A stretch of 64,000 nucleotides of DNA from the NCBI GenBank assembly GCA_947500055.1, contig CANMQO010000002.1:564181-628180 (forward strand). Direction: 5' to 3'. Shown here piece after piece: positions 33,684 through 51,650 of this stretch; positions within the stretch are counted from its first letter, which is position 1, and every line of letters starts with the position of its first letter. The DNA comes from an uncultured Rhodobacteraceae bacterium (lineage in GTDB: Bacteria > Pseudomonadota > Alphaproteobacteria > Rhodobacterales > Rhodobacteraceae). A model generated the notes under the pieces. The model searched no databases. It saw only the letters and a list, made by a program, of their open reading frames with translations, and had not been told where the DNA came from. The position numbers were made by a program, and so were the translations under genes.

Positions 33684-33709
33684 GTAAGATGGGTTTAAAC
33701 CCATCTTAC
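33684..33709. terminator. bidirectional hairpin between convergent clpV and lysR (GTAAGATGGGT-TTAA-ACCCATCTTAC)
   Basis: Perfect 11-bp stem with a 4-nt loop, 14 nt after the clpV stop. It overlaps the LysR stop codon. There is no clear U-tract. Confidence 0.4.
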
Positions 33710-34578: not shown

Positions 34579-34631
34579 ATGTAAGTTCAACTAATATATT
34601 GAAAATCATACGAAGTCGCTTCTTCTGAAAA

Positions 34632-34838: not shown

Positions 34839-37142
34839 TCAGCCATTATCGGCCAGCAACCTGTCAATTGCGGCGATATAGGCCCGAACCTCTGCTGACA
34901 TGGCGGGCGGTGGCGGGGCGCTGACCCCGCCGCCTGCACCGCGCATCTTGCGCTGCGCCCATGCTTTGAGATCGGCAATCGTGTAGTTTCGCAGAAATGG
35001 GTTGGCGCCGACGACGCCAGCCCCCATCACCGCCAGAACCGTCTGATCATCGTCAGAGGACAGCACACGATGCGCCCCGGCCGGCCCCAGGAAATGCGAC
35101 AGGTATAGCCGCCCGGCATCAACCCTGTGCCCACGTGCGCGCAGGAAGTTTTCGTTTTCGCGGGCCAGATTCTGTACCATCTCGCGCGATAGGGTTGGAT
35201 CAACCCGAAGCGCCAACAGCTCTGCCCGCGACATGGTGCCAGCCAGATCAGGCCGATAATCCCGCATCATGCGCAGCCATGTGCTTTCGATGAATTGGCC
35301 CAGCCCGGTCGCGGTGGATAGCGGGTTCTTGGCGTTGGCGTTACCCGCACTTTCAACCTTGATGATCTGATCGGTCAGGGCTGCAACCGCGGATGAGGCC
35401 CCGGCCACCCCGCCATTGCCCAGCGAGAAGGGATCAATCGGTGCGCCGTTCTTGCGGAACTCAAAATGCAGATGCGGTCCGGTCGACCGCCCCGTTGTGC
35501 CCACATAGCCAATCACATCGCCCGCCTGCACCTGTTTGCCCACGATAGCAATTGGTGCGAAGCCGTCCATATGCGCATAGCGTGACTGCAGCCCGTCGGC
35601 GTGGTCGATGTAAACGACGTTACCATAGCCGCCACCATTACCCACAACCGCAAAGGTTCCGTCCCGCGCCGCAAGAATAGGTGTCCCGGTGGGTGCTGCC
35701 CAATCAACGCCGCCATGCAGGCGCACCGCTTTCAAGATGGGGTGAAAGCGGGGGCCATAAGGTGATGACAGCGTTCCATTCACCGGTGTGACAAAGGCCG
35801 CCGCACTGCCGGCGCCCAGCAATCCACGTTGATTGTAGCATCCAAAGCCGGACTCGTTTCCGCCCTTGACTGCGACATAGCAGGGCATGTTCCCCGACGG
35901 TCCGTTGATCCCCGCATAAGCGATCTGCCCCGGCCCATCGCCGCGACCCGTGACATAGAGCAGGGTTACCTTGTCGCCGGGGGCTGCCACGGCCTCAAGA
36001 TCATAGGATTGCGACAGCATCACGATAAGCTCACCCACCAGATTGGTGGGAACGCCGCTACGAATTGCGGCACTGTAGACAGCATCAAGCAGGCGGTAAT
36101 CCTGCACAACCGTGTCAAAGCCCTGGTCGGGGGCCACCAGCGCGGTGAGGTCGGCATTGATCCATGGATTACTGCCCAAGACATAGCCTGCGAAGCCGCG
36201 CCGCGCGAGTGTGCCGACATATCCGCCCGGTCCATAGATGGCCACCTGCAGCGGAGTCGGGGCGTCATCAATTACCCGGTATCGGACCGCCACGATCGTG
36301 TCGGCGGGCAGCCCATCTTCGCCAATAACTTCCGCAAGATCGGGCAGTTTGTCCCGGGCGGTTTCGTCGATCTGCTTGGCAAGCACCTCTGCAAAACCAT
36401 TGTCGGTCAAGAAGGATTGCAAGGATCCCGCCCTGATCAATCGCACCACCAGATCAGTTGAGACATCATGCCGTTCCCCTTCCCTACGGACAAAGGCGAT
36501 GGAGGTGGTGTTCTGGATTTGGGTATCAACATAGCTGATCGCGGTCGCGTTGCCCTCACCAACTGCGTCGCCCCAACTATTGTCATCATCGGTAACGGTG
36601 ATTGTTTCGCCTTCGCCCAAAGGGACGGCAGGTGTTGGCAGGCTGGGTGTTTGGACCAGTGACTGCCCGCGCTGCGCCTGAAAGAAAGCAAAATCCTCTC
36701 GGCTGGAGGGCAGGGCAGTCATCAGGCGGTTTTCCCGCACAACCAGATCTTCGACCAACAGGGTAAAACGGCCGGGTGCCGGTGCTCCGAACCGCGCGGG
36801 GTCAAGTGTTGCTGGCCCAGCCAACATGCGCTTTCCGTCAGTGCCCCCGTTGTCGAACCGTAGAATCATCGGATCGCCGGGGATGTCGGCAAAAGGGGTC
36901 GCCAGCCGGACGGCGGGTGTGGCGGTTTCTGTTTCGATCTGTGTGATTTGAGTATCGTCTTCCGGATCGGTCACCGGTGTTTGGTTTCCGGTAAGAACCT
37001 GCACAATCAGGAAAATGAGACCAACCAGAGCGGTCATCGCTGCAATCCCGCCACCCACTATCAAACCGGTTCTGATGTGACGCTGTCGTCTGCGTTTCTG
37101 CGCGGCTAACTGCGATTGGCGAAACTGTGGGTCGACGTCCAT
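34839..37142 (-). CDS. membrane-anchored bifunctional peptidoglycan hydrolase: M23 metallopeptidase + SLT-like lytic transglycosylase domain
   Basis: ORF 34839..37262, ATG at 37142 (MDVDPQ...) just after the upstream stop. TM LIVGGGIAAMTALVGLIFLIV. M23 motifs HGGVDW, YAHMD and GPHLHFEF (about nt 35457-35789). C-terminal IIKVESAGNANAKNPLSTATGLGQFIESTW is transglycosylase-like (about nt 34977-35369). Confidence 0.85.
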   Translation of the reverse strand: MDVDPQFRQSQLAAQKRRRQRHIRTGLIVGGGIAAMTALVGLIFLIVQVLTGNQTPVTDPEDDTQITQIETETATPAVRLATPFADIPGDPMILRFDNGGTDGKRMLAGPATLDPARFGAPAPGRFTLLVEDLVVRENRLMTALPSSREDFAFFQAQRGQSLVQTPSLPTPAVPLGEGETITVTDDDNSWGDAVGEGNATAISYVDTQIQNTTSIAFVRREGERHDVSTDLVVRLIRAGSLQSFLTDNGFAEVLAKQIDETARDKLPDLAEVIGEDGLPADTIVAVRYRVIDDAPTPLQVAIYGPGGYVGTLARRGFAGYVLGSNPWINADLTALVAPDQGFDTVVQDYRLLDAVYSAAIRSGVPTNLVGELIVMLSQSYDLEAVAAPGDKVTLLYVTGRGDGPGQIAYAGINGPSGNMPCYVAVKGGNESGFGCYNQRGLLGAGSAAAFVTPVNGTLSSPYGPRFHPILKAVRLHGGVDWAAPTGTPILAARDGTFAVVGNGGGYGNVVYIDHADGLQSRYAHMDGFAPIAIVGKQVQAGDVIGYVGTTGRSTGPHLHFEFRKNGAPIDPFSLGNGGVAGASSAVAALTDQIIKVESAGNANAKNPLSTATGLGQFIESTWLRMMRDYRPDLAGTMSRAELLALRVDPTLSREMVQNLARENENFLRARGHRVDAGRLYLSHFLGPAGAHRVLSSDDDQTVLAVMGAGVVGANPFLRNYTIADLKAWAQRKMRGAGGGVSAPPPPAMSAEVRAYIAAIDRLLADNG

Positions 37143-37155
37143 AATGCCCCGGCGC

Positions 37156-38736
37156 TTAACGGAAAATACCGGTGCTGGTATTGCGGTTAATCGTCCGGGA
37201 AGGTGGAGCCGTTGGCGTGGGGGCCGGTGCTGGTGCGGGGGCCGCACGTGGTGTGCTGGCACGTGGCGTTGTTGTTTGACGCGGTGTTGATGCGCGCGGT
37301 GCAGGCGCCGCCCTTACAACTGCTGGGCAGGTGACATCATCACGAAGCATGATCTGGCGAAAGATCGCGATGTCGGGATCCTGTGATGGGGCGGCGCTGT
37401 CAATTTGTTCGAAGTATCGTCCGACGGCCCCGCGCGACCCCGGCCCCCAAGACCCGTCGATACCTGCATTATAACAATTCATGCGAGCCAGCTCGGTTTG
37501 CAATGCGATGACAAGTTCAACCGGTGGCGGATCAAAAGCGCCGGTTTCCACAAGCGTGGCAAAAAGCTCCGGGTCGCGGTCACGTAGACTGCGCCGCCCG
37601 TCCAGATCAGAATATTCGATGGCGGCACCTGATACGGGACCTGTGGGGGCGGCGGCAATTGGAAAACTTGCGTCCGTCGGCGCGATGACACCAACGATGA
37701 TCGATGGGCGGGGCAACCCCCCCGCGCCGGGCACAGGACGAGCCTGTGTGGCAGAGGCTGGGATCGGCACCGCGCCCTGTGGTGCGAGGCGGACACCGCT
37801 GGACACGCGTGGCGCGGCTGATGCGATGGGCGCAAGTCGTGCACCACCTGTACTGACTGGCTTGACGGGTGACGTCAGGACCACCGTTTCATTGGTGACG
37901 ATCCGGTTCATGGATTGTGGCGCGGGCTTATCTGACCGGTCGATAGCAATACCCGCAGCCGCCCACAGCGCCAACATCTGCTCCTGCGCTTCAGGCGACA
38001 GATTGTCGAGCATGTCATAGTCAGCTGCAGTCAGCCGCATCCCAGTGTCGACATTCCGAAAGACGAATGGTGCCGCCAATGTCGTTTCAGTCTTGATATC
38101 CGTGTCGGCAAATAATGCATCTGTTCCCAAGCCGGGCAGCAAAAGACGCTCAAGCATCACATCCGTCACTGATGCGTCTGTACCTGTGCAGGCACTGCCT
38201 GCGGTAACAGGGGATGCAACAAATAGCTGATCCGTTGCTGGTAGTGGGCCAAGGCCCGCGAACGATGGGTTGTCGCCGTCCGCGACCGGATTCTCTGAAA
38301 TTTCACCATGGCAGATGTCCAGAAATATTGCTGTCATATCGCGGCTGCCTGTACCAGCGCGGGCCAGCGCATCGCCCAAGTTGATTGCGCCAGTATCGAC
38401 CATCTGCAGAAGGGTTTGCTCTCCTTCGACCAAAGACCTGCCGGCGTAGTAGATCACAACCGAACCAGATTCCTGTTTCAATGCATCCAGCGCTTGACCA
38501 AGTTCATCGATCTTTGGGTTTTCTAGCCGTTTGACGGTGTAGCCCAACCCGAACAGTGCTTCAGACACATCCTCCGCCCCTTTGCGCAGGGCAATCTGTG
38601 GGCTGTCGTCATATGCGAAATTGGCAATGATCAGCGCCCGATCAGCAGACGCACCGCTACATGTCACCACGCTGCATAGCAGGGCGGCCAATCTAAGTAC
38701 GGATTTACGGATCAGGAACATCCGAGGTTCAAACAT
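37156..38736 (-). CDS. secreted caspase-like (peptidase C14) domain protein with peptidoglycan-binding-like domain; catalytic His apparently replaced
   Basis: 526 aa with a signal peptide (LRLAALLCSVVTCSGASA). C14-like ALIIANFAYDD...VVIYYAGRS...AIFLDICHGE. PG_binding_1-like LQTELARMNCYNAGIDGSWGPGSRGAVGRYFEQ. Pro/Ala/Thr-rich tail. Confidence 0.7.
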   Translation of the reverse strand: MFEPRMFLIRKSVLRLAALLCSVVTCSGASADRALIIANFAYDDSPQIALRKGAEDVSEALFGLGYTVKRLENPKIDELGQALDALKQESGSVVIYYAGRSLVEGEQTLLQMVDTGAINLGDALARAGTGSRDMTAIFLDICHGEISENPVADGDNPSFAGLGPLPATDQLFVASPVTAGSACTGTDASVTDVMLERLLLPGLGTDALFADTDIKTETTLAAPFVFRNVDTGMRLTAADYDMLDNLSPEAQEQMLALWAAAGIAIDRSDKPAPQSMNRIVTNETVVLTSPVKPVSTGGARLAPIASAAPRVSSGVRLAPQGAVPIPASATQARPVPGAGGLPRPSIIVGVIAPTDASFPIAAAPTGPVSGAAIEYSDLDGRRSLRDRDPELFATLVETGAFDPPPVELVIALQTELARMNCYNAGIDGSWGPGSRGAVGRYFEQIDSAAPSQDPDIAIFRQIMLRDDVTCPAVVRAAPAPRASTPRQTTTPRASTPRAAPAPAPAPTPTAPPSRTINRNTSTGIFR

Positions 38737-38780
38737 GTTGCGTCAATTGTAGACAAGATAGCTGATCCCCCGGCGCCGCG

Positions 38781-39209
38781 CTACGGTGGTGGGGCCAAAA
38801 ACAGGGTCCAGCGTTCAGTTTCAAGGGTATCGACCTCAAGAAACAGCGCCTCAAGATGCCCGCGCAACAGGCAACCGGTTTCGCCGCGGATCACAAAGCG
38901 GTTCGGCGCCAGACATAATGGCTTTGTGCCTTGCAGAATTTCCTTTCCAAACACGTCTTGGGCAAAAACATAGATAAAACGTGCTTGCAATTCGTCACGA
39001 ATAACGTTCGCACATTGGTTTGGGCCAATCGTCCACCAGCCACGGGTGACAAAGGCGTCTTCTTCATATTGGCCGATGGCCACATTCACAACGTCAAACG
39101 ATTGATTGCAAACGGCAAATTCTGCCCATGCCGCAGTTGGAAAAGCCGCAACACCAACCAGACCGGTAAGGCGAAATAAACGCAATATATTGGAAATTGG
39201 GGCACGCAC
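38781..39209 (-). CDS. DUF1036 domain-containing secreted protein
   Basis: 142 aa with GTG start and a signal peptide ending AAWA. FAVCNQSFDVVNVAIGQYEEDAFVTRGWWTIGPNQC... matches the alphaproteobacterial DUF1036 pattern. Confidence 0.7.
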   Translation of the reverse strand: MRAPISNILRLFRLTGLVGVAAFPTAAWAEFAVCNQSFDVVNVAIGQYEEDAFVTRGWWTIGPNQCANVIRDELQARFIYVFAQDVFGKEILQGTKPLCLAPNRFVIRGETGCLLRGHLEALFLEVDTLETERWTLFLAPPP

Positions 39210-39233: not shown

Positions 39234-39342
39234 CTGGTTTTGAACACGGTTTGGTTGGTAATGAGCCGAAATTTACTGCTCTTAAGCGGTTGTTCTGCTA
39301 TACTTATCGTCGTTGGGGCCAAGGAAAAGGAGGATTGTCGCA

Positions 39343-39651: not shown

Positions 39652-39755
39652 AGGCGTATTGACAGCTGTGGGTTGATGCGGCCCAATCCCTCTCATCTAT
39701 ACTTGCATAGACGGGTGTTATCCTGTCATGCCACTGAACAGATTTGAGGGACGAC

Positions 39756-40199
39756 ATGCCATTGAAAAAATTTGCTTCATGCGTAACTGCGGTTGCAGTC
39801 AGCCTGACCATGGGTGCAATGCCCGCGCTGGCACAGGACGCCACCCCTAGCTTTTCGTTGGATTTGAATAATGTGGCTGACACCGAACAGGGCGGGTGCC
39901 GCCTGACTTATGTTGCGGCAAACGGGACCGGTCAGGCGTTGAACGCCGTATCTTATCAGGTGGCTGTATTTGACGCCCAAGGCATTGTCACGGACCTGCT
40001 TGTGCTGGAATTTGGTGCGCTGATTGAAGGCAAGACCAAGGTGGTCCAGTTTGATCTGGGTGGGCGTGGCTGCGTTGATATTTCCCGTATCACCGTAAAT
40101 GAGGTCGCGGAATGCACGCTGGCGGACGGAACGGTTGGCGACTTTTGTCTGACCGGGTTAGAGACCGCATCACGTAGCGCCATCCAGTTTGGCATCTAA
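39756..40199 (+). CDS. hypothetical secreted protein (147 aa, 4 Cys)
   Basis: ORF 39744..40199, ATG at 39756. Signal peptide MPLKKFASCVTAVAVSLTMGAMPALA. Sits immediately upstream of exbB. Confidence 0.55.
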   Translation: MPLKKFASCVTAVAVSLTMGAMPALAQDATPSFSLDLNNVADTEQGGCRLTYVAANGTGQALNAVSYQVAVFDAQGIVTDLLVLEFGALIEGKTKVVQFDLGGRGCVDISRITVNEVAECTLADGTVGDFCLTGLETASRSAIQFGI

Positions 40200-40237: not shown

Positions 40238-40876
40238 ATGAACGCCCCGGACCTTTCCGCCCTGAATGCCCCAACCATCGCGGTTTTTGTGGCACTTGCT
40301 GTCATGTCGGTCCTTGCTGTGACGGTCTCTTTCTTCAAAACCTTTCAGTTTGCCCGCATGGGCGTTGGCAAGGTCGGCGCTGCTGAGGCGATCCTGAATG
40401 ACTGGTTGGGTGGTCGCGCCGAAAAGGCGTTGCATGACGCAACTCAGCGCAAGTCTGTTTTGGCGCGCGTCTTGCAGGCTGTGTTCACCGGGCTGCGCGC
40501 ACGCCCCGATGATCAGGGATTTGCCGAAGAATTGGGGCGGCAGACCGCGATTGTCGAACTGTCGGCCATGACCAGCCGGATGCGCCTATTGGAAACGGTC
40601 GTGCAAGCCGCCCCTATGCTGGGCCTTTTGGGAACGGTGATCGGGATGATCGACGCGTTCAGCACATTGGCAAGCGCAGAGGGCGCTGTTGATCCTGCAT
40701 TGCTGGCAGGTGGCATCTGGACCGCCCTGACAACGACCGCAGCCGGGTTGGCGATTGCGCTGGTCACCTTCTTTGTCGCCACTTGGCTGGAAGGCCGAAT
40801 TGAAACCGAACGGCAATCTATCGAGGCGTTGATCTCTGCCGCGATCAATGGCCGTGTCGACGCAAAAACCGGCTGA
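40238..40876 (+). CDS. exbB: MotA/TolQ/ExbB proton-channel family protein
   Basis: 212 aa with 3 TM segments. APMLGLLGTVIGMIDAF and GGIWTALTTTAAGLAIAL are family signatures. Confidence 0.9.
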   Translation: MNAPDLSALNAPTIAVFVALAVMSVLAVTVSFFKTFQFARMGVGKVGAAEAILNDWLGGRAEKALHDATQRKSVLARVLQAVFTGLRARPDDQGFAEELGRQTAIVELSAMTSRMRLLETVVQAAPMLGLLGTVIGMIDAFSTLASAEGAVDPALLAGGIWTALTTTAAGLAIALVTFFVATWLEGRIETERQSIEALISAAINGRVDAKTG

Positions 40877-41352
40877 TGTCCGAAACCGCCAAAGCATATA
40901 CCTCGCGCGAGCATCCGGTGATGCAGCGCCGGTCGGCGGCCCGGTATCGCTTTGCGTTGACACCGCTGGCGGATGCGATGTTTCAGCTTTTGATCTTTTT
41001 TATGCTGACATCCAGTCTGACCCCATATTCGCTGCTGACGATCCGCAGCGGAGCGGAGCCGGGCACGACCGCCAGTGACCCCGACGCCGCCCCCGCTGAT
41101 CAGGACGTGATCATCGGCGAAAACGCCCGCGTCTGGTCAGTGGAACAAGGGCAGGTTGTGATCAACAACACTGCCTATCAGCCATCCGATCTGCCTGCAT
41201 TGGCGGCGGTCGTCAGTCAGGATATCGCGGCAGAGGTCATCCTGCTCATGGCAAGCTCTGCTGAGGTGCAGGATCTGACATCGGTTCTGGAAGCCTTGAC
41301 CAGCGCCGGTGTCACTGCGGTGAAAATCGCCAAGACGGATGGTGAGACATGA
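40876..41352 (+). CDS. exbD: ExbD/TolR family biopolymer transport protein
   Basis: 158 aa. TGATG overlap with exbB. LTPLADAMFQLLIFFML is a TM segment with the conserved Asp. Confidence 0.8.
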   Translation: MSETAKAYTSREHPVMQRRSAARYRFALTPLADAMFQLLIFFMLTSSLTPYSLLTIRSGAEPGTTASDPDAAPADQDVIIGENARVWSVEQGQVVINNTAYQPSDLPALAAVVSQDIAAEVILLMASSAEVQDLTSVLEALTSAGVTAVKIAKTDGET

Positions 41353-41753
41353 TCCGCGCATTGCCCAAACGCAAATCGGCCGTTGGCATGGATGTGTCAC
41401 TGGCGATTGTGAATATTGTTCTTTTGCTGATCTTCTTCTTTCTGGCCACCGGGCAACTGCTGAACCCGCCGACCCAAGGGGTCGAAATTTCCGAAACCAC
41501 CGAATTGCCGCTGGATCAGCTGCCAGCACCTATCCTGATCGTTCGTGACGACGGTGATTGGGAGCTAAATGATCGTTCGGTGAACTCCGATATTTTCGGT
41601 GCAGCCCTTGCAGAGCTTGAGGCGCCATTTACCCTGCATGTTCTGATCGGAAGGGACGCCCCGGCCACAAGCCTTCTGGACATTCTCGACCGTCCGGAAC
41701 TGACGGAGGTAGAGATCAAACTGGTCACCCTGCGCAGGCCTGCGCGCCGATGA
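41349..41753 (+). CDS. exbD: ExbD/TolR family biopolymer transport protein (second copy)
   Basis: 134 aa with ATGA overlap. GMDVSLAIVNIVLLLIFFFL is a TM segment with Asp, followed by an ExbD-like periplasmic domain. Confidence 0.8.
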   Translation: MIRALPKRKSAVGMDVSLAIVNIVLLLIFFFLATGQLLNPPTQGVEISETTELPLDQLPAPILIVRDDGDWELNDRSVNSDIFGAALAELEAPFTLHVLIGRDAPATSLLDILDRPELTEVEIKLVTLRRPARR

Positions 41754-43000
41754 TTTTTGGTGACCATAGGCAACGCAGCCTGCATTGGGCCGAAGCCTTT
41801 GGGGCGTCGGCTGTCGTGCATTTGGGCGCCGCAATCCTGATGTTTGATCTGCTGGAGGGGCTGATCACATTCGCCCCAGAGACAGTGCCGGAACCAGAGA
41901 TTGAGATCATCACAATTTTGGACGATGATTTCTTGGCCGCGCCGGATCTTCCGGAAACCAATGATCCGCTCACTGAGACACCGACCGAGGGCGAAACCCC
42001 CGACCCTGATCCGGCACCTGATATTGCAGAGAATCCCTCACCACCCGAGGACGTTCCAGAACCGGCAGATCCTCCAGAAGAGCTTGAACCGGTCCCGGCA
42101 GAGATCGCTGACCTGGAACCAGAGCGACTTGCCCCTGTTGCCCCCGATAACGGGCTAGTCGCAATCACGCCGCAACCGATCAGCCCGTTGCGCCCCGAGG
42201 ATGGAACCGCCATTCCCGTAGCACCAGTTGCATCCGGTACCTTGTCAGGGACGACGCTGTCGGCAACTCCCGTTACCCGCCTGCAGCCCACGCAAGCAAC
42301 GACGATCACGCCATTGCAGACCCTACCCAATCCGGTTCCAACACCAGCCACCGCGCAGGCACCGACGCCGGACGGCCAGACCGCCGGTGGTGCCGTCAGC
42401 GAATTGATCGCGCGGATCCGGGGGCGCCTGGCTGATCCCTGTCTTCTGGCGATCCCTCAACAGTCAGGTGATGGTGTGCCGGAATTGGTGTTGATGGGAT
42501 CAAATGAGGCAGAGATGCAGGGCTTCGCGGCTGCGGTGCTGGCTGATCTTGTCCCACAGCCCACGGAACGTCGTATCCTGATTGATGCCCGTCAATGTGC
42601 CGCCTTGAACTTCGCCCGGGAAAACCGATTTTACCCGGCATTTCGACTGTCGGTCAGCCTTGATCAGGCCGTTATCGCAAGCGGGGCCAATCTGACTGGC
42701 GCCATTGGCAACACGGCGGGGCGCTATATCTCGCTGCTTTTGGTGGATGATAACGGCGTCGTTCAAGATGTCGGCAATTACCTGTCTTTCACCGGTAGCG
42801 CCGCCCGTTTTGATGTCACCTTGACCCGCGATGGCAATACCCGCGACACCAGCCAAACGCTTGTTGCCCTCGCCACCGCAACCCGCCCGGCCACGCTGAA
42901 CGCGCAAAATGGTCAATTGGCGGCAGATTTCTTTGCGGCATTGCGGGCAGAGTTGGGGCCGGACACGCCACTGGTTCTTGTCCCTTTTGATGTGCGCTAG
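41750..43000 (+). CDS. TonB-like energy-transducer anchor with non-canonical C-terminal domain (PpkA-periplasmic-domain paralogue)
   Basis: 416 aa with ATGA overlap with exbD2. The N-terminal anchor FGASAVVHLGAAILMF carries the TonB SxxxH motif. Pro/Glu/Asp-rich spacer (about aa 45-215). The C-terminal ~200 aa lacks TonB_C-like sequence and aligns to the PpkA C-terminus (see findings). Confidence 0.7.
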   Translation: MIFGDHRQRSLHWAEAFGASAVVHLGAAILMFDLLEGLITFAPETVPEPEIEIITILDDDFLAAPDLPETNDPLTETPTEGETPDPDPAPDIAENPSPPEDVPEPADPPEELEPVPAEIADLEPERLAPVAPDNGLVAITPQPISPLRPEDGTAIPVAPVASGTLSGTTLSATPVTRLQPTQATTITPLQTLPNPVPTPATAQAPTPDGQTAGGAVSELIARIRGRLADPCLLAIPQQSGDGVPELVLMGSNEAEMQGFAAAVLADLVPQPTERRILIDARQCAALNFARENRFYPAFRLSVSLDQAVIASGANLTGAIGNTAGRYISLLLVDDNGVVQDVGNYLSFTGSAARFDVTLTRDGNTRDTSQTLVALATATRPATLNAQNGQLAADFFAALRAELGPDTPLVLVPFDVR

Positions 43001-44949
43001 GGGCGCAGATCAAAGCCTGCAATTGCCAGTCCCGCTTTGGTATCACCGCGCCCGGTGATTTCCGCCTCAATCAGTGGCAGTAAGGTCACCGCGCTGGTTC
43101 CATCAGCAGACGCCGCAGCAGCGATCAGCGGGCTATCTGACGAAAGCGCGATCAGAAGCTGGGGTGTTTCGCCGGCGCCTTCCTCTGCTGACAGACCAAA
43201 GCTGAATGTGGCACTGCCATCGCCTTGTTCGGTCAACCGGCCTGTCAGGTTATAGACCCCGCCCTTGTCCGATACCCAGGCGAGCCAAGTCGGTCGCCCG
43301 CGTCGATCGCTCAGGCGTCCAACAGTTGTGCCGCCACTTTGCATCAGTGCCGTATCCAGCGTCAGAACCGGTGGTGCCGCGTCAGGATTACGCAAAGCCT
43401 CGGCCAATGCCAGTGCGGGACATTGTTCGGTTGTGATCCGGTGTTCCGAAAGTGTCGGACGCACATTGAATGTATCGTCATAAGTGTCGAGCAGCTGATC
43501 GAATACGCCCTGGATCGATGAGAACGCTGCGATTGTGCCGCTATTTGGTCCCGCTTGCAGGCGTGTAACGTAGACGCAGGGTTCGTCGGACCATGCCGCC
43601 AGAAAACCCTCTCGTGTACTGCTCCATGGGTCGTCTGAACTGTCTGTCGCGGTTGGTAAGGTGGGTTCCAATACGGCGGGTCTTGGCGTTCCGATCAGCC
43701 CTTGTTGCCATGCAAAGAAGCCACCTATCCCGGCAAAGACGAGCAGCACGAACAGCCAGCGCAGTGCGCCGCCGTTACGCGGTGCGGGAGTTGGGGCAGG
43801 GGTTGGGAGATCCAGCCCGGTCGTCTGGCCGAATGGTGACCCCGACATCGAATCCGCGGGCGGATTAGGCGATGGAGCGCTGCGTCCGGGTGGCTGACGC
43901 AAGCCGGGTACCGCCGCGCTGACTGGCGCTGCGTTCTGTCTCGAAACTTGCCCCGGATCATCAAGCATCGCAATCACAGCCGCCATGCTCGCCGGCCGAT
44001 CCACCGGATCAGGTTCCAACATATGCATCAGAAGGGGGCGCAGCGCAGCATCGATATCAGACAGATCAGGCACCTCGCGGCGCGCATTCACGGCCTCTAC
44101 GATCGAACTGCCCATATCCAGCGGTTTGCCCCGCAAGGCGGCGGCCATCAACAGCCCCAGCCCATAGATATCGGTTCTTGGTCCGATCTCTCCGCCGAAA
44201 TGCCCCAGTTGTTCAGGCGAGATATATTTGAACTTGCCCGCCAACTGGCCGTGCAGGGTGTTTTCCGTCATCTCGGCTGATTTGGCGATGCCGAAGTCGA
44301 TCAGCACAGCATTATCAACCGACCCGTCGCGCAGCATCACATTGTCAGGTGATAGATCGCGGTGGATGACGTCCATCCCATGCGCGCGCTCCAACCCGGT
44401 GGCAACCCGCCGCATCAGCCCTGTCGCCTGTGGCAGGGTCAAGGGTGCAACATCGCGGATATGGTCAGACAGGGCGATGCCTTCGATGAACTCCATGATC
44501 AGGCAGAACCTGTCCAGATCGGCATCGCGCACAAAGTTGTAATACCGCACGATGGCTTGGTCCGACAATTGGCACAACACCTTGGCTTCGCGCATGAAAA
44601 GGGCGGCGACCTTTTCATCATGGGCCAGTGATTGCAGCACGATCTTGATGGCCACCGCATCGCCGGTAAAGACATTCTCGCCCCGGAACACCTCGCCCAT
44701 GCCGCCTGCGTTGATCAGTTCCTTGATCTCGTAATTGTTGTTGATCAACGTGCCAATCGGCACTGGCACAGCGGCGTTATCGGTCGGCAGCGGGGCCGCG
44801 TCTGGCATGGGGGCTGCGGGTGGGACCGGCGGCGTGGTGATGCGCGTCGGCTCTTCGGGCTGCGGTGCGATTTCTGTGCGGTCGTCGACCGGCGGAGCAA
44901 TCTGGGTCTTGTCGTCATCGCCGGGTGGATTGGTGGGGTCGTTTGTCAT
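42997..44949 (-). CDS. ppkA: T6SS-associated Hanks-type Ser/Thr protein kinase PpkA
   Basis: 650 aa. G-loop GGMGEVF, VAIKIV, HRDLSPDNVM, DFGIAK, SPEQ. Single TM WLFVLLVFAGIGGFFAW and a ~230-aa periplasmic C-terminal domain. Last gene of the tssK-tssL-tssM-tagF-pppA-ppkA operon. Confidence 0.9.
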   Translation of the reverse strand: MTNDPTNPPGDDDKTQIAPPVDDRTEIAPQPEEPTRITTPPVPPAAPMPDAAPLPTDNAAVPVPIGTLINNNYEIKELINAGGMGEVFRGENVFTGDAVAIKIVLQSLAHDEKVAALFMREAKVLCQLSDQAIVRYYNFVRDADLDRFCLIMEFIEGIALSDHIRDVAPLTLPQATGLMRRVATGLERAHGMDVIHRDLSPDNVMLRDGSVDNAVLIDFGIAKSAEMTENTLHGQLAGKFKYISPEQLGHFGGEIGPRTDIYGLGLLMAAALRGKPLDMGSSIVEAVNARREVPDLSDIDAALRPLLMHMLEPDPVDRPASMAAVIAMLDDPGQVSRQNAAPVSAAVPGLRQPPGRSAPSPNPPADSMSGSPFGQTTGLDLPTPAPTPAPRNGGALRWLFVLLVFAGIGGFFAWQQGLIGTPRPAVLEPTLPTATDSSDDPWSSTREGFLAAWSDEPCVYVTRLQAGPNSGTIAAFSSIQGVFDQLLDTYDDTFNVRPTLSEHRITTEQCPALALAEALRNPDAAPPVLTLDTALMQSGGTTVGRLSDRRGRPTWLAWVSDKGGVYNLTGRLTEQGDGSATFSFGLSAEEGAGETPQLLIALSSDSPLIAAAASADGTSAVTLLPLIEAEITGRGDTKAGLAIAGFDLRP

Positions 44950-44958
44950 ATCGCGGCC

Positions 44959-45732
44959 CTACTCGAAATCGACCGCGGGCGCGACAAATGATGTTGCCGA
45001 ACAGCGGACGACGACCGTTGTTACATTGTCTTTCGCCCCCCGAGCCAGTGTTTGCCGGATCAATCCATCGCAGATCGCCTGCGGCGGCTGACTTGATTGC
45101 AATGCCTGCTGAATGTCAGCATCGCTGCAATGCTCGGTCAGCCCGTCTGAGCAGAGCAGGAACATGTCGCCTTCGACCAATGCCCCGTCAATGACGTCGC
45201 ACCGGGGTGCTTCGGTCACACCGATGGCGCGGGTGATGACGTTTTTGCGTGGCCAGTTTTCCGCCTCTGTGGCTGAAATCAAACCCGCTTCGAACAGTTC
45301 ACGTACCTCGGTGTGATCCTTGGTCAGCTGGGTCAGCGCCCCGTCACGCAGCAGGTAAATGCGGCTGTCGCCTGACCAGATGCAGATATAGCGATCCTCG
45401 AATGTCAGCAGCGCCACCAGAGTGGCACCTACGGTGCCGCCACCAAGGGTGACGGCATGTTGCCTGATCCGGTCATGCGCGCGGCCCAGCCGTTCCATGA
45501 ACCGCGCCTGCAAATCCTCGGGTGAGCTGCCATAGCCGACAGATGCAAGCTCTGCCACGATAGTCTGGCTGGCGAAATCGCCCGCGTCATGCCCGCCCAT
45601 CCCATCAGCAACAACCCAGACCCCGAATCCCGGCTTGGTCAGGTAGCTATCTTCGTTATGGGCGCGGACCATGCCCGTGTCAGTGGCGGCCCCCGTTTCA
45701 ATGTCGAAATACTCGGTCTGCACCTGGGTCAT
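44959..45732 (-). CDS. pppA: PP2C-family Ser/Thr phosphatase PppA
   Basis: ORF 44959..45909. ATG at 45732 (MTQVQTEYFDIETGAATDTGMVRAHNEDS) abuts the tagF stop. VVADGMGGHDAG, LLCSDGL, AKDNVTTVVV. Confidence 0.9.
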   Translation of the reverse strand: MTQVQTEYFDIETGAATDTGMVRAHNEDSYLTKPGFGVWVVADGMGGHDAGDFASQTIVAELASVGYGSSPEDLQARFMERLGRAHDRIRQHAVTLGGGTVGATLVALLTFEDRYICIWSGDSRIYLLRDGALTQLTKDHTEVRELFEAGLISATEAENWPRKNVITRAIGVTEAPRCDVIDGALVEGDMFLLCSDGLTEHCSDADIQQALQSSQPPQAICDGLIRQTLARGAKDNVTTVVVRCSATSFVAPAVDFE

Positions 45733-46445
45733 TGCATCGCAGCCTCGTTTTCCGGGGCGGTGAAGGCCGCACCCATCATCCACGCGAAAGCTGCAGCACC
45801 GGGCAAGCCGTTGGTGACATAAAGCGCGGACCCAACCGGATCGGTGCGCCAGAGATAAGTGCGCGTGGCCTGCGCTCTGGCCACATCGGCAGCAGCCACA
45901 TCGGACCAAAGCCGGATCACATTGTCATCAGGCCGGGATGCCCAGAAATCCGTGGCCGGTAGCGGATCCGCCGCCGAAAGCCCCGGCAGTATCGCATCGG
46001 CAAAACGTGCGGCCATGGCGCGCGCATCGTCGTCGCCCCGCGCATAACCGTTCAGAAATCCGTCAATCGCGTCATAGAATCGCTGATCAGGGTCTGTTGG
46101 TGGTGGTGCGATTGCGGCCCCTTCTATACCTGCCAGCAGGGGAAAGCGGCGACCCACCTTGTCGCGCGCGGCTGCCATCATCCCGGAAAACCCGCGCCCG
46201 TCCGGCGTCAGAGCCGGACCAATCCAGATCCGCATCACGGGGGCATTGTCATAATGCGCCTCCCACGCATCGGCGACACCGTCGCGCAGTGCAGGCAACA
46301 TCTGGTTTAGCCAGCGTTCAATGCAATCAGACAGCGATTGCGACAGGCCCGCAGTGATGAAATCGCCAAAGGCGGGATGCTTACCGTAAAATCCGGCCGC
46401 AATCTGGCTATGTTGCATCGATTGGTTCACGGGGTCAGTCCACAC
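45729..46445 (-). CDS. tagF: T6SS-associated protein TagF (ImpM/DUF2094)
   Basis: 238 aa. GFYGKHPAFGDFI is the TagF N-terminal signature. GTG at 46445 overlaps the tssM stop; an alternative ATG is at 46418. Confidence 0.8.
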   Translation of the reverse strand: MWTDPVNQSMQHSQIAAGFYGKHPAFGDFITAGLSQSLSDCIERWLNQMLPALRDGVADAWEAHYDNAPVMRIWIGPALTPDGRGFSGMMAAARDKVGRRFPLLAGIEGAAIAPPPTDPDQRFYDAIDGFLNGYARGDDDARAMAARFADAILPGLSAADPLPATDFWASRPDDNVIRLWSDVAAADVARAQATRTYLWRTDPVGSALYVTNGLPGAAAFAWMMGAAFTAPENEAAMQ

Positions 46446-49400
46446 TTTGTGGGCAGCTGAAATTCGTCAGTTCGGGCATCGTAAACGGGTTGAAATTGGA
46501 CGCGAATGTCATGTCAAACCGCACCGCACGCCCGGCGAAAATATGTGTCAGTCGTACCCCATTGCCGAGATCGCGGGGCGTCTGCCCGGACCGAATGAAA
46601 TCGACGATGGCCCATTGCCCGCCGCTCCATTGCCGGGGTCGGACAGAGGTTTCGAACCGCGAATCCGTGTTCATTTCGACCACATTGCCCGTGCCTGGCC
46701 AAGTGATGGATTGCGAGGTTCCATCCTTGATCAATTCGATCTTTTCATCGTTCACGCTGATCGTCACATTGACCAGGTCGCCGGGCAGATCATCAGGCGA
46801 GAAAGTGATCGCGACCTCTGGCTGACGTTCACCGCTGGGGAAGAACGCGCGCTGGATTTTGTCAGCCCGTTCAAACTGCAACAGCATATTGGTGGATAGA
46901 CGCCCGGCCAGTGGGCTGCCCGAACGCACCCGGAAACCGTCATTCGTCTTGTCCACATGGCGGCTCAGATAGGTGTCATAATAGGTCTGCATCGTTCCGG
47001 CCGGCCCAAAAAACCGGCTGAAATCCTGCACTGAGACATGCCGCGCACTACCCAGATCAAACGGGTAGTAGCCATCGATGCTTTGCCGGCATTCAAAAGC
47101 GACTGTGTTGCCCATTTCGCGATTCATCTCGCCAATATCGGCGTCGGTCGCTTCGGCCTCAAAATCGCTTTTGACATCGTTTAGGAACCGGCCAATTGGT
47201 CCCGGCAGGTTTGAGTTATAGCGGGTCAGATCATTCAGCAGACCCGGCAGCAACTGCCCTTCGACGCCGCCGGGTGCTTGTACGGCCAAGCGGCGGTTTT
47301 GTTGGATCTTTTCCATCGTTGTAAGGATCACGTCAATTGGGCGACCGGCGGCCCCTTGTTCCACCGCGCGATGCCACAGCTCAAACCGGTCCTCGATCCG
47401 CTCCGCCTCGCGCCTCGGCCCGCCTTCGCCGCCGCCAACACGTTGCTGGTTCTTGGCGCTGTTGCTGGCCGCCTCAAGCAAGATCCGCTGCAGCCCGCCA
47501 GAGGTTTGTTTGAAACGCTGGAACATCTGCCCGCCCACGTCTGCACCAATATCGCCGGACGCCATCGCGGTCGGATCGAGGCTTTCCAATTCGTCAAGAA
47601 AGCTGGTCATCTTGGTTTCACGCACCACCGCATTTGCCAACCGCACGATGGGGGAGGCAAATTGCGACGAAGCCGTACCAAGGGCGGTGTAATTGGGGGC
47701 ATCACCGGCCATGTTATTGACCTGCACCCTATCCAGCATAGCCATCCACTCGGTTTCGAAATCGCGCGCATATTGCAGTTGTAATGCCTGTTCGAGCCCT
47801 GCCAACTGATTGTCGTAGTTAACCGCATTGGCCTGATCACCCAGCACCCATTTGTCGTTTTCCAGCACTTCCCCGACCTCAAGCACCTGATCGAGAAAGA
47901 AGAACCAATACCCGTCAAACGTATAAAGCGCTGGCACGCTGAGTTCCGTAAAGTCGCTGCCGTCATTGGTGGCGAACACGATGGGGCCTTCGGGGTGCAA
48001 CTCGTCCGCCAGATTGAAATCGGGCAGGGCCGATTGCCGGGCCTTGTCGCGAATGATCGCGTAAGCCTGATCAACCAACGACATCTGCACGATGGCGCTG
48101 CGCGACAGGGTGATTGCCGCGTCATCGACAGGAATGTTGATATTCTTGGTGTCGTCCAGTTCCAGCATATTGGCCAGATGCTGTTTCAGTGCGTCGCCGG
48201 TTGCCTGATTGCCAAGCCCTGCATAGGCGTCGTCCCAAATGGTGCCGAACCACGCTTTGATCGCATCATCATCCGGGCGCGGCCCAAGACCGGCCAGCAG
48301 CATATAGACCTTCAATGCGCGGTAAATCTCGGCCGGGTCGCCTTGTTCACGTAAGGTGGGCAACCGCTGTTCGAGATCAAGGATCAGCCGTGGCCGCAAC
48401 ATCTGCTCCAACGCATCCCCGTAAGACGCCTGACCGGCTGTGTTGATCCGTGCCAATTGGCGCAGCCCGAAACCGTTCCAGGTTGTTTCCTCGACGATCG
48501 TCCCGTCATTCAGCGTGACCTCTTGCATCTGGTCCAGATAGGGCAGGACGGACACAACATCAGAGTTATCAACTTCTGTCCGGTTCAGTTCCGTCTGGGC
48601 GGCGTTGGCATATTCAAAGGCCTGCTGTTCAACCGTATCGACGTAATTCTTGTTCTGCCAAAAGCTGAAGCCAAGCCCGGCCAGCAGCGCGGCGGTGCCC
48701 AGCCCGATGGTGGACAAGCCCAATATGCGCAGAATACGGGCGCGGCGGACCGCGCGGGCGTCATGGCCCACCCAGTCACGTTCTTCGAAGATCACGCGTC
48801 GCAACACATCATGCAGAAAAAAGCTTTTGCCCTGACCTGACATGAACGATGGGGCAAAGGCTCCAGGCGCCTGATCGTTACGCGACATGGCCCCAAGGAC
48901 CTGATCAATCGGCGTGCCTTCTTGCGTGCCGGAGGTAAAATAGAACCCCCGCAGGATCGCGTTGGATTTATAGCGGGTGGGTTCAAAGATACGGCGCAGG
49001 AAATCGCTGACATTGTCGCGCAGGAGCGCCATCTGGCCCGGCAGGCCAAAGATCGCGACGCGGCTGATCCCGTCGGGTTCTTCAGTCAGCCGGTCGATCA
49101 ATTCATCCGAAAGGCGCGATACCAGTTGATCAAATTCCGCAGGAACCTGTTCGTGGGTCTGAGTCTTCCGATCCTTCGTCTGGAATGTCACACCCCATAC
49201 GGATTTGCGCCGGTTCAGGCTGAAACTGCTGAAATATTCGCGAAAGCCTGAGATCAGATCACATTTCGTGAACAGCACATAGACCGGAAAATCGATGCGC
49301 AGTTTTTCATGCACCTCGCCCAGACGGGCGCGCACAATCTCGGAATGCTGGGCCAGCTGTTCGGGTGTGGCGTTCATCATATCCTCGACCGAGAAGGCCA

Positions 49401-50043
49401 GGATCACGCCGTTAATCGGCTGTTTGGGTCGCGACTTTTTCAGCAGGTCAAGGAAGGACTGCCAACTGCTTTCATCCGCTGTCTTGTCACTGTCCTGCGT
49501 GGTGTAGCGGCCAGCCGTGTCTATCAGGATCGCATCTTCGGCAAACCACCAGTCGCAATAGCGTGTGCCGCCAAAGCCCGACACAACGCCGGCGTCATCA
49601 GCATTGGACAGTGGGAATTCGATGCCGGAATTGCGCAGGGCGGTGGTTTTCCCCGCCCCCGGTGGGCCAATGATCACATACCATGGCAGATCGTAAAGAT
49701 AGGATGCGCCACCCGATTTTTTCAATGTGGCAAGCGCATCGTTCATCCGCTCGGCCAGAACTGTGCCGTCGCCGGTAGGTTTGGTTGGGGTAAGCGCCTC
49801 TTCGATATCACGCGCGGCGGCTCGGCGTTTGCGCCAACCAAGAAACTGGAAAAGCAGGATCAGCCCGACGATCAAACCGATCAGGGTGGCCCGCAGCCAG
49901 ATCGTGGACATGATCGCGATGCCCGTCATCGGGAAGCCGATCCAGATCGCAACAATGACGCAGAGAATGCCAAGGATAATCGCCGGGATGCGCATCCATG
50001 GACGCCAGCGCAGGAAACGGAACATGATGCGGAAAATGTTCAA
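46435..50043 (-). CDS. tssM: T6SS membrane complex protein TssM (IcmF)
   Basis: 1202 aa. N-terminal TM segments, Walker A GPPGAGKTT, and IcmF-related central and C-terminal domains. 4-nt overlap with tssL. Confidence 0.95.
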   Translation of the reverse strand: MNIFRIMFRFLRWRPWMRIPAIILGILCVIVAIWIGFPMTGIAIMSTIWLRATLIGLIVGLILLFQFLGWRKRRAAARDIEEALTPTKPTGDGTVLAERMNDALATLKKSGGASYLYDLPWYVIIGPPGAGKTTALRNSGIEFPLSNADDAGVVSGFGGTRYCDWWFAEDAILIDTAGRYTTQDSDKTADESSWQSFLDLLKKSRPKQPINGVILAFSVEDMMNATPEQLAQHSEIVRARLGEVHEKLRIDFPVYVLFTKCDLISGFREYFSSFSLNRRKSVWGVTFQTKDRKTQTHEQVPAEFDQLVSRLSDELIDRLTEEPDGISRVAIFGLPGQMALLRDNVSDFLRRIFEPTRYKSNAILRGFYFTSGTQEGTPIDQVLGAMSRNDQAPGAFAPSFMSGQGKSFFLHDVLRRVIFEERDWVGHDARAVRRARILRILGLSTIGLGTAALLAGLGFSFWQNKNYVDTVEQQAFEYANAAQTELNRTEVDNSDVVSVLPYLDQMQEVTLNDGTIVEETTWNGFGLRQLARINTAGQASYGDALEQMLRPRLILDLEQRLPTLREQGDPAEIYRALKVYMLLAGLGPRPDDDAIKAWFGTIWDDAYAGLGNQATGDALKQHLANMLELDDTKNINIPVDDAAITLSRSAIVQMSLVDQAYAIIRDKARQSALPDFNLADELHPEGPIVFATNDGSDFTELSVPALYTFDGYWFFFLDQVLEVGEVLENDKWVLGDQANAVNYDNQLAGLEQALQLQYARDFETEWMAMLDRVQVNNMAGDAPNYTALGTASSQFASPIVRLANAVVRETKMTSFLDELESLDPTAMASGDIGADVGGQMFQRFKQTSGGLQRILLEAASNSAKNQQRVGGGEGGPRREAERIEDRFELWHRAVEQGAAGRPIDVILTTMEKIQQNRRLAVQAPGGVEGQLLPGLLNDLTRYNSNLPGPIGRFLNDVKSDFEAEATDADIGEMNREMGNTVAFECRQSIDGYYPFDLGSARHVSVQDFSRFFGPAGTMQTYYDTYLSRHVDKTNDGFRVRSGSPLAGRLSTNMLLQFERADKIQRAFFPSGERQPEVAITFSPDDLPGDLVNVTISVNDEKIELIKDGTSQSITWPGTGNVVEMNTDSRFETSVRPRQWSGGQWAIVDFIRSGQTPRDLGNGVRLTHIFAGRAVRFDMTFASNFNPFTMPELTNFSCPQSVD

Positions 50044-51650
50044 AAGGTCCCCTCCCGGGCCAGCATGATTTCAACCCGACGGTTTTGTGCCTTGCCTTCG
50101 GTGGTTTCATTGCTTGCGATGGGCTGTGTTTCGCCCTTACCATCGACGGTGACACGATCGGCCGATGCCCCGCATCCAGGGCCTTCTGCCGGAACGGGCA
50201 CGTCAATCGCTTGCCCGTTTGCATCGACCATGGTGACGGCGACGGTGTTGCATGCGGGTGCGGCTAGCCCGTCGCGCAGGATTGTGGCCACGGATTCAGC
50301 GCGGGCGATGGATAGCTCGGTATTCGTCTTGTACCGCCCCCGCCCCGAAAGCGGGTCACTATCCGTATGGCCAACAACGCGGATTGGCCCCGGCTCGCTG
50401 TTCAGGATGCGCGTAATCTCGGGCGCGACTTCCTGAAAAGCGGGGGAAAGTTCGGTGCTGCCACGGTTGAACAGCAGGGCGTTGCCGACACGGATAAAGA
50501 TGAAATCGCCCTGAATTCCGACCTCAACCGATCCGTTGGCGATCAGGTCTGCCAACCCGTCCCTGATCCGGTCCAACTGGGTCTGATCCGGTTCAGGTCG
50601 CGGGAATGGCTCAATCTCGAAATTGCGGATCAGGGTGATCTGGCTGACATTCTGGTGCAGACCGGTCAGGTCGGCGGCGACGGCATTGCCGTCCCGGTTC
50701 AGCAAAGTCGACAAGGTCGCAAAGGTGCCGACGATCAATGCACCGGCCACAGCGGCGTAGATCCACAGGGGTAGACCGCCAAACTTGCGCCGCCCACCCA
50801 GCGGCACGCCCGCCCAATTGACTGAGATATCTTCGTCAGGACGAGGTTTGACCCGGCGCAGTGTTTCATAAATCGCCGACCGGATGCGGGACAGTTCAAC
50901 TGCGCCGTTGGGGGCTGTTCGATACTGCCCCTCGAACCCTAATGACAGGCAGGTCAACATCAGTTCCAGCAGATTGAAGCGTTGGGCGGGGGCCTGCATC
51001 GCCTTTTCCGCCTCCTGAAAGAAACCGACCCCGGAATCGCGGCGTTGGAAGAACCGGGCGACCATCGAATATTGAATCCAGACGCCCCGGTCCGCACCCG
51101 GCAGGTTCTGGACGATATCATCGGCTGTGCCCGACAGCGCGTATTTCGCAACCTGCGCCTCATGCGGATCTGCACCGGCGGCGACGGCGTTCGCCTCGAA
51201 GGCGGTCAGTTCGCGAGTCACATGTTCCATCAGGGGCTGCGCCTGCATTTCGACCATGCCTGTACGCAAGCGGCCAAACAGGATCAGCAGATTAGCGGCC
51301 GCGGCCAGCAACGGATTGCTTGGCCCACCTTTGCCCAGACCCTTGGCGCGCAACGCTTCCTGCAAGGAAATGCGGGGCGTCTGCAGTGGTGCGGCCTGCG
51401 GTTGGTCGCTGGGGATCTCAGGAAAGAAGCTGTCACTTGGTGCGTGGGGCCGCCCCATGTCGCCGCCCGGTTGCGGGGCCGCACCGCCCAGCCATGTATT
51501 GCCGCTCGGTGGGGCCGGACGTGGCGGGGCAGGCGCTGGCGGCGGCACCGCGCCACCGATCACCGTCCGGTCGCCACTATCCGGTACCGTGGGTTTGGCA
51601 CCCGGCAGGGGGCCACCAAACACCGTCTTGTCGTCGTCATCATCCGACAT
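50040..51650 (-). CDS. tssL: T6SS membrane complex protein TssL (DotU) fused to C-terminal OmpA/MotB peptidoglycan-binding domain
   Basis: ORF 50040..51674. ATG at 51650 forms a TGATG overlap with the tssK stop. Disordered Pro-rich N-terminus, DotU core (NPLLAAAANLL...LELMLTCLSLGFEGQYR), one TM, and an OmpA-like end (VVGHTDSDP...NRRVEI). Confidence 0.9.
   Translation of the reverse strand: MSDDDDDKTVFGGPLPGAKPTVPDSGDRTVIGGAVPPPAPAPPRPAPPSGNTWLGGAAPQPGGDMGRPHAPSDSFFPEIPSDQPQAAPLQTPRISLQEALRAKGLGKGGPSNPLLAAAANLLILFGRLRTGMVEMQAQPLMEHVTRELTAFEANAVAAGADPHEAQVAKYALSGTADDIVQNLPGADRGVWIQYSMVARFFQRRDSGVGFFQEAEKAMQAPAQRFNLLELMLTCLSLGFEGQYRTAPNGAVELSRIRSAIYETLRRVKPRPDEDISVNWAGVPLGGRRKFGGLPLWIYAAVAGALIVGTFATLSTLLNRDGNAVAADLTGLHQNVSQITLIRNFEIEPFPRPEPDQTQLDRIRDGLADLIANGSVEVGIQGDFIFIRVGNALLFNRGSTELSPAFQEVAPEITRILNSEPGPIRVVGHTDSDPLSGRGRYKTNTELSIARAESVATILRDGLAAPACNTVAVTMVDANGQAIDVPVPAEGPGCGASADRVTVDGKGETQPIASNETTEGKAQNRRVEIMLAREGTF

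Follow-up and report, generated by a model that had tools for sequence, protein, structure and literature searches.

An ExbB/ExbD operon in Rhodobacterales type VI secretion clusters ends in a TonB-like gene that shares the periplasmic domain of the kinase PpkA

What determines the time and place of firing in type VI secretion systems (T6SSs) is still an open question; the periplasmic inputs to their kinase PpkA vary by lineage. In the locus described here, a T6SS cluster carries its own Ton-like operon, the last gene of which ends in the same domain as the neighboring kinase. We analyzed a stretch of 64,000 nucleotides from an uncultured Rhodobacteraceae bacterium (contig CANMQO010000002.1 of GenBank assembly GCA_947500055.1, forward-strand positions 564,181 to 628,180), referred to below as the window. 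Family scans of its open reading frames (ORFs) placed a complete T6SS cluster with PpkA at ~21.1-59.2 kb. This is a Rhodobacterales-type T6SS, and its accessory set includes an exbB-exbD-exbD'-tonB-like operon of its own with the gene for a small exported protein (orf151) ahead of it. An initial annotation of the window had proposed that the periplasmic domain of PpkA is duplicated as the C-terminal domain of the TonB-like protein. We found that the C-terminal ~200 residues of the TonB-like protein and of PpkA are homologous end to end and have the same predicted fold. All coordinates are collected in Table 1.

The two ORFs and their cysteine pairs were found where the initial annotation had put them: C231 and C283 in the TonB-like protein (TGT codons at 42440 and 42596) and C458 and C510 in PpkA, with 51 residues between the two cysteines in each. 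There are exactly two cysteines per domain, which fits a putative periplasmic disulfide. In the 97 residues past the second cysteine, where about 22 identities had been estimated by eye, we counted exactly 22 without gaps, above all of 5000 composition-preserving shuffles (7.7 +/- 2.6 identities, maximum 20). BLASTP of the two full proteins returned E=1e-7 with 30% identity over 112 residues. Two six-sequence family alignments, built by adding to each C-terminal region five close homologues from a database of 5.8 billion proteins, were then compared with hhalign, and this profile-profile comparison was significant as well (probability 99.05%, E=2e-18), with 192 aligned columns that cover approximately the whole domain. 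Taken together, BLASTP, hhalign and shuffling rule out a chance or compositional similarity. The 1-residue shift described earlier corresponds to a one-residue indel ~66 residues past the second cysteine in both the BLAST and the MAFFT alignments. The F-D-[VL]-R motif said to end both proteins is present in both; the TonB-like protein does end in FDVR, but PpkA carries one extra proline (FDLRP).

AlphaFold2 models of the TonB-like domain (predicted local distance difference test, pLDDT, 91.1; predicted template modeling score, pTM, 0.88) and of the PpkA domain (pLDDT 91.3, pTM 0.87) share one order of elements: helix, two strands, helix, strand, helix, seven or eight strands, two helices and a final strand. 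No family match for the shared domain was obtained in Pfam, NCBIfam or PADLOC, and a sequence search of the PDB gave nothing below an E of about 1. Foldseek comparison of both models with the PDB returned generic immunoglobulin-like (Ig-like) sandwiches only (ICAM, PD-1, titin, LAIR-1 and a Legionella DUF4785 protein), with TM-scores of at most 0.39 over about 125-150 alignment columns. The models thus describe the shared domain as a predicted N-terminal alpha/beta part and an Ig-like beta-sandwich core with two invariant cysteines, for which no solved whole-domain counterpart was found.

To describe the history of the pair, we assembled 136 domains (82 TonB-like-type and 54 kinase-type). Both cysteines are present in 135/136 of these, and exactly two cysteines in 135/136. 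The 51-residue spacing seen in the window proved to be the usual one elsewhere: it occurs in 52/54 kinase-type domains and in 50/81 TonB-like-type domains, the latter ranging from 50 to 55. Mean identity was 43% in the TonB-like clade, 40% in the kinase clade and 20.5% between the clades, and TonB-like and kinase domains from the same genome were no closer to each other (20.3%) than those from different genomes (20.5%). We therefore conclude that the duplication is ancient and shows no sign of gene conversion. The proposed duplication accordingly stands as an ancient paralogy, and not as a recent copy; a recent duplication or gene conversion is ruled out by these values.

The 416-residue protein itself is TonB-like in design, yet not a member of the TonB family. 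Its membrane anchor is strongly conserved over 77 homologues, with the histidine in 77/77, the serine at position -4 in 71/77 and the tryptophan in 76/77; the S-x3-H arrangement is the signature of TonB/TolA anchors. The anchor (S20/H24) and the spacer (38 prolines in 172 residues) thus agree with what had been read from the sequence at first, and so does the lack of a TonB_C region: no Pfam or NCBIfam model, including that of TonB_C (PF03544), the domain by which TonB boxes are bound, matched any part of the protein. Anchor, spacer and linkage to exbB and exbD agree with a TonB design, whereas the missing TonB_C places the protein outside the family. Annotation pipelines name its gene 'hypothetical protein'. 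On a plasmid of Leisingera sp. S132, RefSeq calls the gene 'serine/threonine protein kinase' (L086 8386-9609, WP_260019038.1), although the product has no kinase domain; the only part of the product that this name suits is the C-terminal domain shared with PpkA, and the name is an annotation error. In AP014801.1 (Rhodovulum sulfidophilum), the matched feature bears the same name, seen as a feature name only.

The genes exbB, exbD, exbD' and tonB-like are translationally coupled, with a 1-nucleotide overlap (TGATG) at the first junction and ATGA overlaps at the next two, and the stop codons of the tonB-like gene and ppkA overlap in the palindrome CTAG (42997-43000). The components of a stator are present, namely an ExbB family subunit (PF01618) and an ExbD (PF02472) with a protonatable transmembrane aspartate. 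At the column equivalent to ExbD D25, in an alignment with Escherichia coli reference sequences, ExbD1 has Asp in 76/76 homologues, and ExbD2 has Asn in 71/76, Ser in 5/76 and Asp in 0/76. Since the first paralogue always has the aspartate and the second never does, the asymmetry implies a putative heterodimeric ExbD pair that would have a single protonatable site. The operon resembles the Ton system in its ExbB/ExbD families, its single-pass S-x3-H anchor, its Pro-rich spacer and its organization as one operon. It differs from that system in having a Cys-x51-Cys domain in place of TonB_C and two ExbDs, one with Asp, in the lack of a receptor match among the cluster ORFs scanned, and in being embedded in a T6SS cluster. 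With the Tol system (TolQ-TolR-TolA) it has in common the order stator, stator, arm, and a TonB-like anchor joined to a C-terminal domain other than that of TonB, by which the target is determined; unlike there, TolA domains II and III are missing, tolB and pal are not found nearby, and the spacer is Pro-rich instead of a long helix.

We next consider how far the two domains occur together. When one genome was scanned for each GTDB species, the TonB-like-type domain was found in 105 genomes, and synteny was compared by tblastn in 80 loci out of these 105 matching genomes, almost all of them from Rhodobacterales. The genera include Loktanella, Yoonia, Marivivens, Jannaschia, Paracoccus, Rhodobacter, Tabrizicola, Tateyamaria, Aestuariibius and Primorskyibacter, and the closest loci have 90-91% identity to the TonB-like protein of the window. 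A block of DUF1036 (minus strand) and orf151-exbB-exbD-exbD'-tonB-like (plus strand) was found in every locus with enough flank, always in a T6SS cluster. In most loci ppkA is convergent on the tonB-like gene, as in the window. The order differs in Paracoccus, where clpV comes next after the tonB-like gene, and ppkA, which still encodes the domain, sits at the other end of the cluster; in Leisingera, one plasmid carries both genes, ~39 kb from each other. The domain is encoded in both the TonB-like gene and the kinase-bearing ORF in 52 loci and in the window, and every kinase-bearing ORF seen has it; for two more kinase copies (L002, L052) the ORF is truncated or split. Among the 72,556 plasmids of PLSDB, each domain type was found in 16 records, and these are the same 16 accessions, even where the genes are 10-40 kb apart. 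Two metagenome scans that started from the kinase-type domain, made to look for its TonB-like partner, gave no confirmed locus. In the loci and plasmids examined, the genes for the two domain types always travel together, and the pairing noticed in this one strain is thus found far beyond it.

These data bear on the explanation that there is no functional link at all, i.e. that an ordinary nutrient-uptake Ton system happens by chance to lie in the cluster and that the shared domain is a relic of domain shuffling. The Pfam matches of ExbB and ExbD are generic and would agree with this. Against it, there is no TonB_C domain, no TonB-dependent receptor family matched among the cluster ORFs scanned, the block has kept its place in T6SS clusters despite several rearrangements among Rhodobacterales genera and on plasmids, and the two domain types co-occur on 16/16 plasmids. 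We consider this explanation highly improbable.

A wider scan with HMMER, using a mixed profile against 1.84 billion representative proteins, returned 1,256 clusters at E<=1e-3 and 1,077 at E<=1e-10, with family size counted as clusters at 50% identity. Provisionally, the family can be defined as a C-terminal domain of ~200 residues, with two invariant cysteines ~51 apart and an order of H-E-E-H-E-H, beta-sandwich and H-H-E (H, helix; E, strand), in a membrane-anchored periplasmic protein encoded in a T6SS locus; both window proteins fit this definition. Among 156 proteins examined, the best profile was the TonB-like type for 132 and the kinase type for 24, the latter including three with 3-5 tandem copies of the domain. 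One of these, P0011 (1,874 residues), carries five copies of the domain, each with C-x51-C, behind an N-terminal hydrophobic segment, and lies in a metagenomic T6SS locus with the order tssM-tagF-PP2C-kinase(619 residues)-P0011-kinase(557 residues). P0012 has three domain copies, and its gene is followed by that of a 559-residue kinase. The copies in P0011, P0012 and P0013 (all from metagenome JGI 3300047160) are separated by Pro-rich linkers. The domain is thus tied to T6SS serine/threonine (Ser/Thr) kinases in three architectures, and a multivalent array beside kinases is what would be expected if the domain pairs with copies of itself.

As to the kinase, its 650 residues are encoded amid tss, PP2C, TagF and Fha genes, which identifies it as the PpkA of a complete T6SS cluster. 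It combines a kinase domain, one transmembrane segment and a periplasmic C-terminal domain, and the cluster also encodes a PP2C phosphatase, TagF_N and a protein with FHA and T6SS_FHA_C domains, i.e. the parts of a T6SS threonine-phosphorylation pathway. The same set of membrane Ser/Thr kinase with periplasmic C-terminus, PP2C, FHA protein and TagF is found in the H1-T6SS of Pseudomonas aeruginosa (TagQRST-PpkA-PppA-Fha1, TagF). The PpkA of P. aeruginosa has a von Willebrand A domain; in the present kinase no such domain was detected, and its periplasmic domain had no Pfam match. A further difference is that TagQRST-like genes, which the initial annotation had reported as absent, were not found among the cluster ORFs scanned at 21-59 kb of the window; here, a sensor paralogue coupled to a motor adjoins the kinase. 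Another close likeness is to Agrobacterium tumefaciens, also with an alphaproteobacterial T6SS, which has PpkA, PppA, TagF and Fha, and in which TssL is extended at its N-terminus (in the window, by 120 residues before DotU). In Agrobacterium this extension carries a phosphorylated threonine (PMC3953482), whereas an ExbB/ExbD/TonB-like operon is not described there. One kinase copy, on the metagenomic contig L002 (1703-3684), occurs as two ORFs with a 13-nucleotide overlap, a 386-residue kinase part and a 277-residue part with the transmembrane segment and the domain, and this reflects a frameshift or else a genuine split. The next gene after this kinase was considered as a TonB-like gene and rejected on inspection; by eye it resembles a chaperone.

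Envelope proteins that act on the periplasmic domain of PpkA have precedents. RtkS in Serratia (PMC6082577), TssW in Acidovorax (PMC12607579) and TagR in Pseudomonas are cluster-encoded and set T6SS activation or position through this domain, and lineage-specific envelope proteins act on it in other T6SSs (PMC12607579, PMC13584744). None of TagR, RtkS and TssW has been reported to be coupled to a motor driven by the proton-motive force (PMF), and none was found described as a paralogue of the kinase's periplasmic domain. Strict co-occurrence, paralogy, the multi-copy proteins beside kinases and the precedent of these envelope activators together support a functional link of the TonB-like protein with PpkA signaling.

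The likeliest mechanism, to which we assign a probability of roughly 0.4, is that the motor is coupled to the kinase by pairing of the paralogous domains. ExbB and the ExbD(Asp)/ExbD'(Asn) heterodimer would make up a stator that is powered by the PMF and sets the TonB-like arm in motion, and the domain at the tip of the arm would form a pseudo-homodimer with its paralogue in PpkA. Clustering and autophosphorylation of PpkA would then depend on the state of the motor, and in this way on PMF or envelope contact, and T6SS assembly would be controlled through phosphorylation of TssL/Fha, opposed by PppA and TagF. In this lineage the operon would thus take the role of TagQRST/TagR in Pseudomonas, RtkS in Serratia and TssW in Acidovorax. 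That a PMF motor is wired directly into post-translational control of the T6SS, with the arm pairing with the PpkA sensor domain and energization or mechanical contact gating both clustering and firing, is in our estimate quite unlikely.

Several observations weigh against coupling by domain pairing. The domain-domain interaction is a prediction from homology and co-occurrence. A mirror-tree comparison of 36 loci, in which partial r values were obtained after removal of the TssM/TssL/TagF background, gave r=0.78 (partial 0.28) for the TonB-like versus the PpkA domain, which is not above other pairs. For the heterodimer that the initial annotation had offered as an option, this comparison thus shows no signal over the background of the cluster. 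The TonB-like domain correlated best with ExbB (0.85/0.45), and the control pair of PpkA kinase domain and PppA stood out (0.88/0.70). Since the mirror-tree comparison is confounded by differences in evolutionary rate, we read this result as no support for co-evolution of the two domains, rather than as a refutation. The conserved positions also differ. Only 10 columns are conserved to at least 90% in both clades (the two cysteines, the Gln before the second one, Gly, and Leu/Phe/Ala), whereas 26 columns are conserved in the TonB-like clade only (among them a DDNGVVQD motif and several Arg/Asp) and 15 in the kinase clade only. In addition, the PpkA domain is placed ~25 residues from its transmembrane segment and the TonB-like domain on a spacer of ~170 residues, a geometry that would suit reach to the outer membrane, rather than to a neighbor at the inner membrane.

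The conserved columns also bear on the option that the arm and the kinase have a common third partner or ligand, e.g. a periplasmic protein such as orf151 or an envelope component, for which they compete or which one hands over to the other. The same predicted fold, the strict co-occurrence and the conservation of the exported orf151 at the head of the operon all speak for such a partner. The columns common to both clades are just those 10 and are core-like (the two cysteines, Gln, Gly and hydrophobic residues), and the 26 and 15 clade-specific positions do not coincide, which argues against one ligand bound at one equivalent site. The suggestion in the initial annotation that both domains may bind the same ligand is weakened by these differences; we regard a shared third partner as distinctly unlikely.

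The remaining alternative is that the motor energizes a step at the outer membrane or the peptidoglycan (e.g. opening, anchoring or remodeling) and does not signal, and that the shared domain is a docking module which brings arm and kinase to one membrane complex. This would be in line with the long Pro-rich spacer, which suits spanning of the periplasm, with the lack of a co-evolution signal between the two domains, and with the lack of a TssJ family match among the cluster ORFs scanned. Conserved exported and peptidoglycan-active proteins adjoin the operon, and the candidate partners would be the M23 peptidase, the caspase-domain protein with its peptidoglycan-binding-like tail, the DUF1036 protein, orf151 and the giant autotransporter-like protein next to tssK. 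In Rhodovulum sulfidophilum the counterpart of the giant protein (2214 residues) contains PATR repeats, and its annotation reads autotransporter outer-membrane beta-barrel protein. The M23 peptidase, caspase-domain, DUF1036 and giant proteins fit envelope remodeling equally well as they fit coupling to the kinase. Envelope work leaves unexplained, however, why it is a paralogue of the kinase sensor domain that forms the tip of the arm and why multi-copy versions lie beside kinases, and the differing conserved surfaces of the two clades speak against docking at the same site. We consider this explanation somewhat unlikely, and motor-to-kinase coupling remains the preferred reading.

The proposal that no T6SS signaling module of this kind has been described agrees with the literature searched: the module was not described in the publications found (full text; T6SS with ExbB/ExbD/TonB/TolQ, Rhodobacterales, plasmids). 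In a 2026 review of T6SS accessory factors the words ExbB, TonB, TolQ, MotA and 'proton motive' are absent, and a 2026 survey of plasmid T6SSs, which lists 14 Rhodobacteraceae systems, leaves the module unmentioned. Because its function rests on inference, we regard the module as a variation on known kinds, namely Ton/Tol-like transducers and control of T6SSs by threonine phosphorylation, and not as categorically new. A whole order of mostly marine and soil bacteria, with many plasmid-borne T6SSs, has a dedicated Ton/Tol-like motor in the cluster. If motor and kinase are coupled, T6SS activation would be tied to PMF or to mechanical contact across the envelope. The ExbB/ExbD motor family, which serves nutrient import, outer-membrane maintenance and gliding, would thereby gain a new output. 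If the motor is wired directly into T6SS control, a Hanks-type kinase would receive a mechanical or energetic input, and the Ton/Tol-like transducers would include a third functional class. Even if they are uncoupled, there remains a sizeable domain family (~1,256 clusters) that matches no existing model, a T6SS accessory module that is missing from the 2026 review, and an annotation error in RefSeq that has been exposed.

Table 1. Features of the T6SS cluster around the exbB-exbD-exbD'-tonB-like operon and ppkA (window coordinates)
Feature	Position	Strand	Details
LysR regulator inside cluster	33706-34590	-	
Accessory genes across block: M23 peptidase, caspase-domain protein, DUF1036 protein	34839..39209	-	position kept in most loci
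orf112, small exported protein upstream of exbB	39313-39651	+	conserved in closest relatives only; no convincing family match
orf151, small exported protein	39744..40199	+	signal peptide, 4 conserved Cys; first gene of conserved block, directly upstream of exbB
ExbB/TolQ/MotA-family proton channel subunit	40238..40876	+	PF01618, E=3.7e-26; kept in every locus with enough flank
ExbD paralogue 1	40876..41352	+	PF02472, E=5e-12; transmembrane Asp D33 kept; start overlaps exbB stop
ExbD paralogue 2 (exbD')	41349..41753	+	PF02472, E=5.7e-5, 23.6 bits, just under the 25.4-bit cut-off; Asn for transmembrane Asp
TonB-like protein, 416 residues	41750..43000	+	last gene of exbB-exbD-exbD' operon
TonB-like transmembrane anchor, W13/S20/H24	41786-41821	+	hydrophobic segment, SAVVH
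TonB-like Pro/Thr/Ala/Glu-rich spacer, residues 41-212	41870-42385	+	38 Pro, 23 Thr, 20 Ala, 18 Glu per 172 residues
TonB-like C-terminal Cys-x51-Cys domain, residues 213-416	42386-42997	+	Cys codons 42440-42442 (C231), 42596-42598 (C283), both TGT
PpkA-type Ser/Thr kinase, 650 residues	42997..44949	-	convergent with tonB-like gene
PpkA periplasmic Cys-x51-Cys domain, residues 440-650	43000-43632	-	Cys codons 43576-43578 (C458), 43420-43422 (C510)
PpkA transmembrane segment, about residues 396-416	43702-43764	-	single hydrophobic segment
PpkA Hanks-type kinase domain, residues 73-323	43981-44733	-	PF00069, E=1e-36
PppA, PP2C phosphatase	44959..45909	-	PF00481, E=2e-13; true start probably downstream of listed TTG
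TagF	45729..46445	-	PF09867, E=7e-22
tssM, tssL (DotU + OmpA domain, 120-residue N-terminal extension), tssK	46435..52981	-	family scans
Giant ORF, 2051 residues, adjoins tssK	53081-59236	-	no Pfam or NCBIfam match

With regard to the rest of the cluster, family scans identified a PP2C phosphatase, TagF, TssM, TssL (DotU and OmpA) and TssK after ppkA on the same strand, and DUF6931, Fha, TssA, TssB, TssC, Hcp, TssE, TssF, TssG and ClpV in the other arm. The TssJ, VgrG and PAAR families had no match among the large cluster ORFs scanned (window 21161-59236). At the head of the operon, orf151 lies upstream of exbB in nearly all loci compared, and its cysteines and motifs are conserved over 70 distinct homologues. 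It had no convincing match in Pfam, NCBIfam or PADLOC, the sub-threshold matches being MadM (16.9 bits, cut-off 24.8) and floc_PepA (15.4, cut-off 80). Homologues of the giant ORF are found in the same place in other Rhodobacterales T6SS clusters; that the giant protein might be an outer-membrane partner of the TonB-like arm is speculation. The M23 peptidase has 807 residues and the caspase-domain protein 526, with a C-terminus that by eye resembles a peptidoglycan-binding motif. In the mirror-tree comparison, the DUF1036 protein gave 0.81 (partial 0.66) with the PpkA kinase domain and 0.77 (partial 0.57) with PppA, high correlations that may reflect just similar slow rates.

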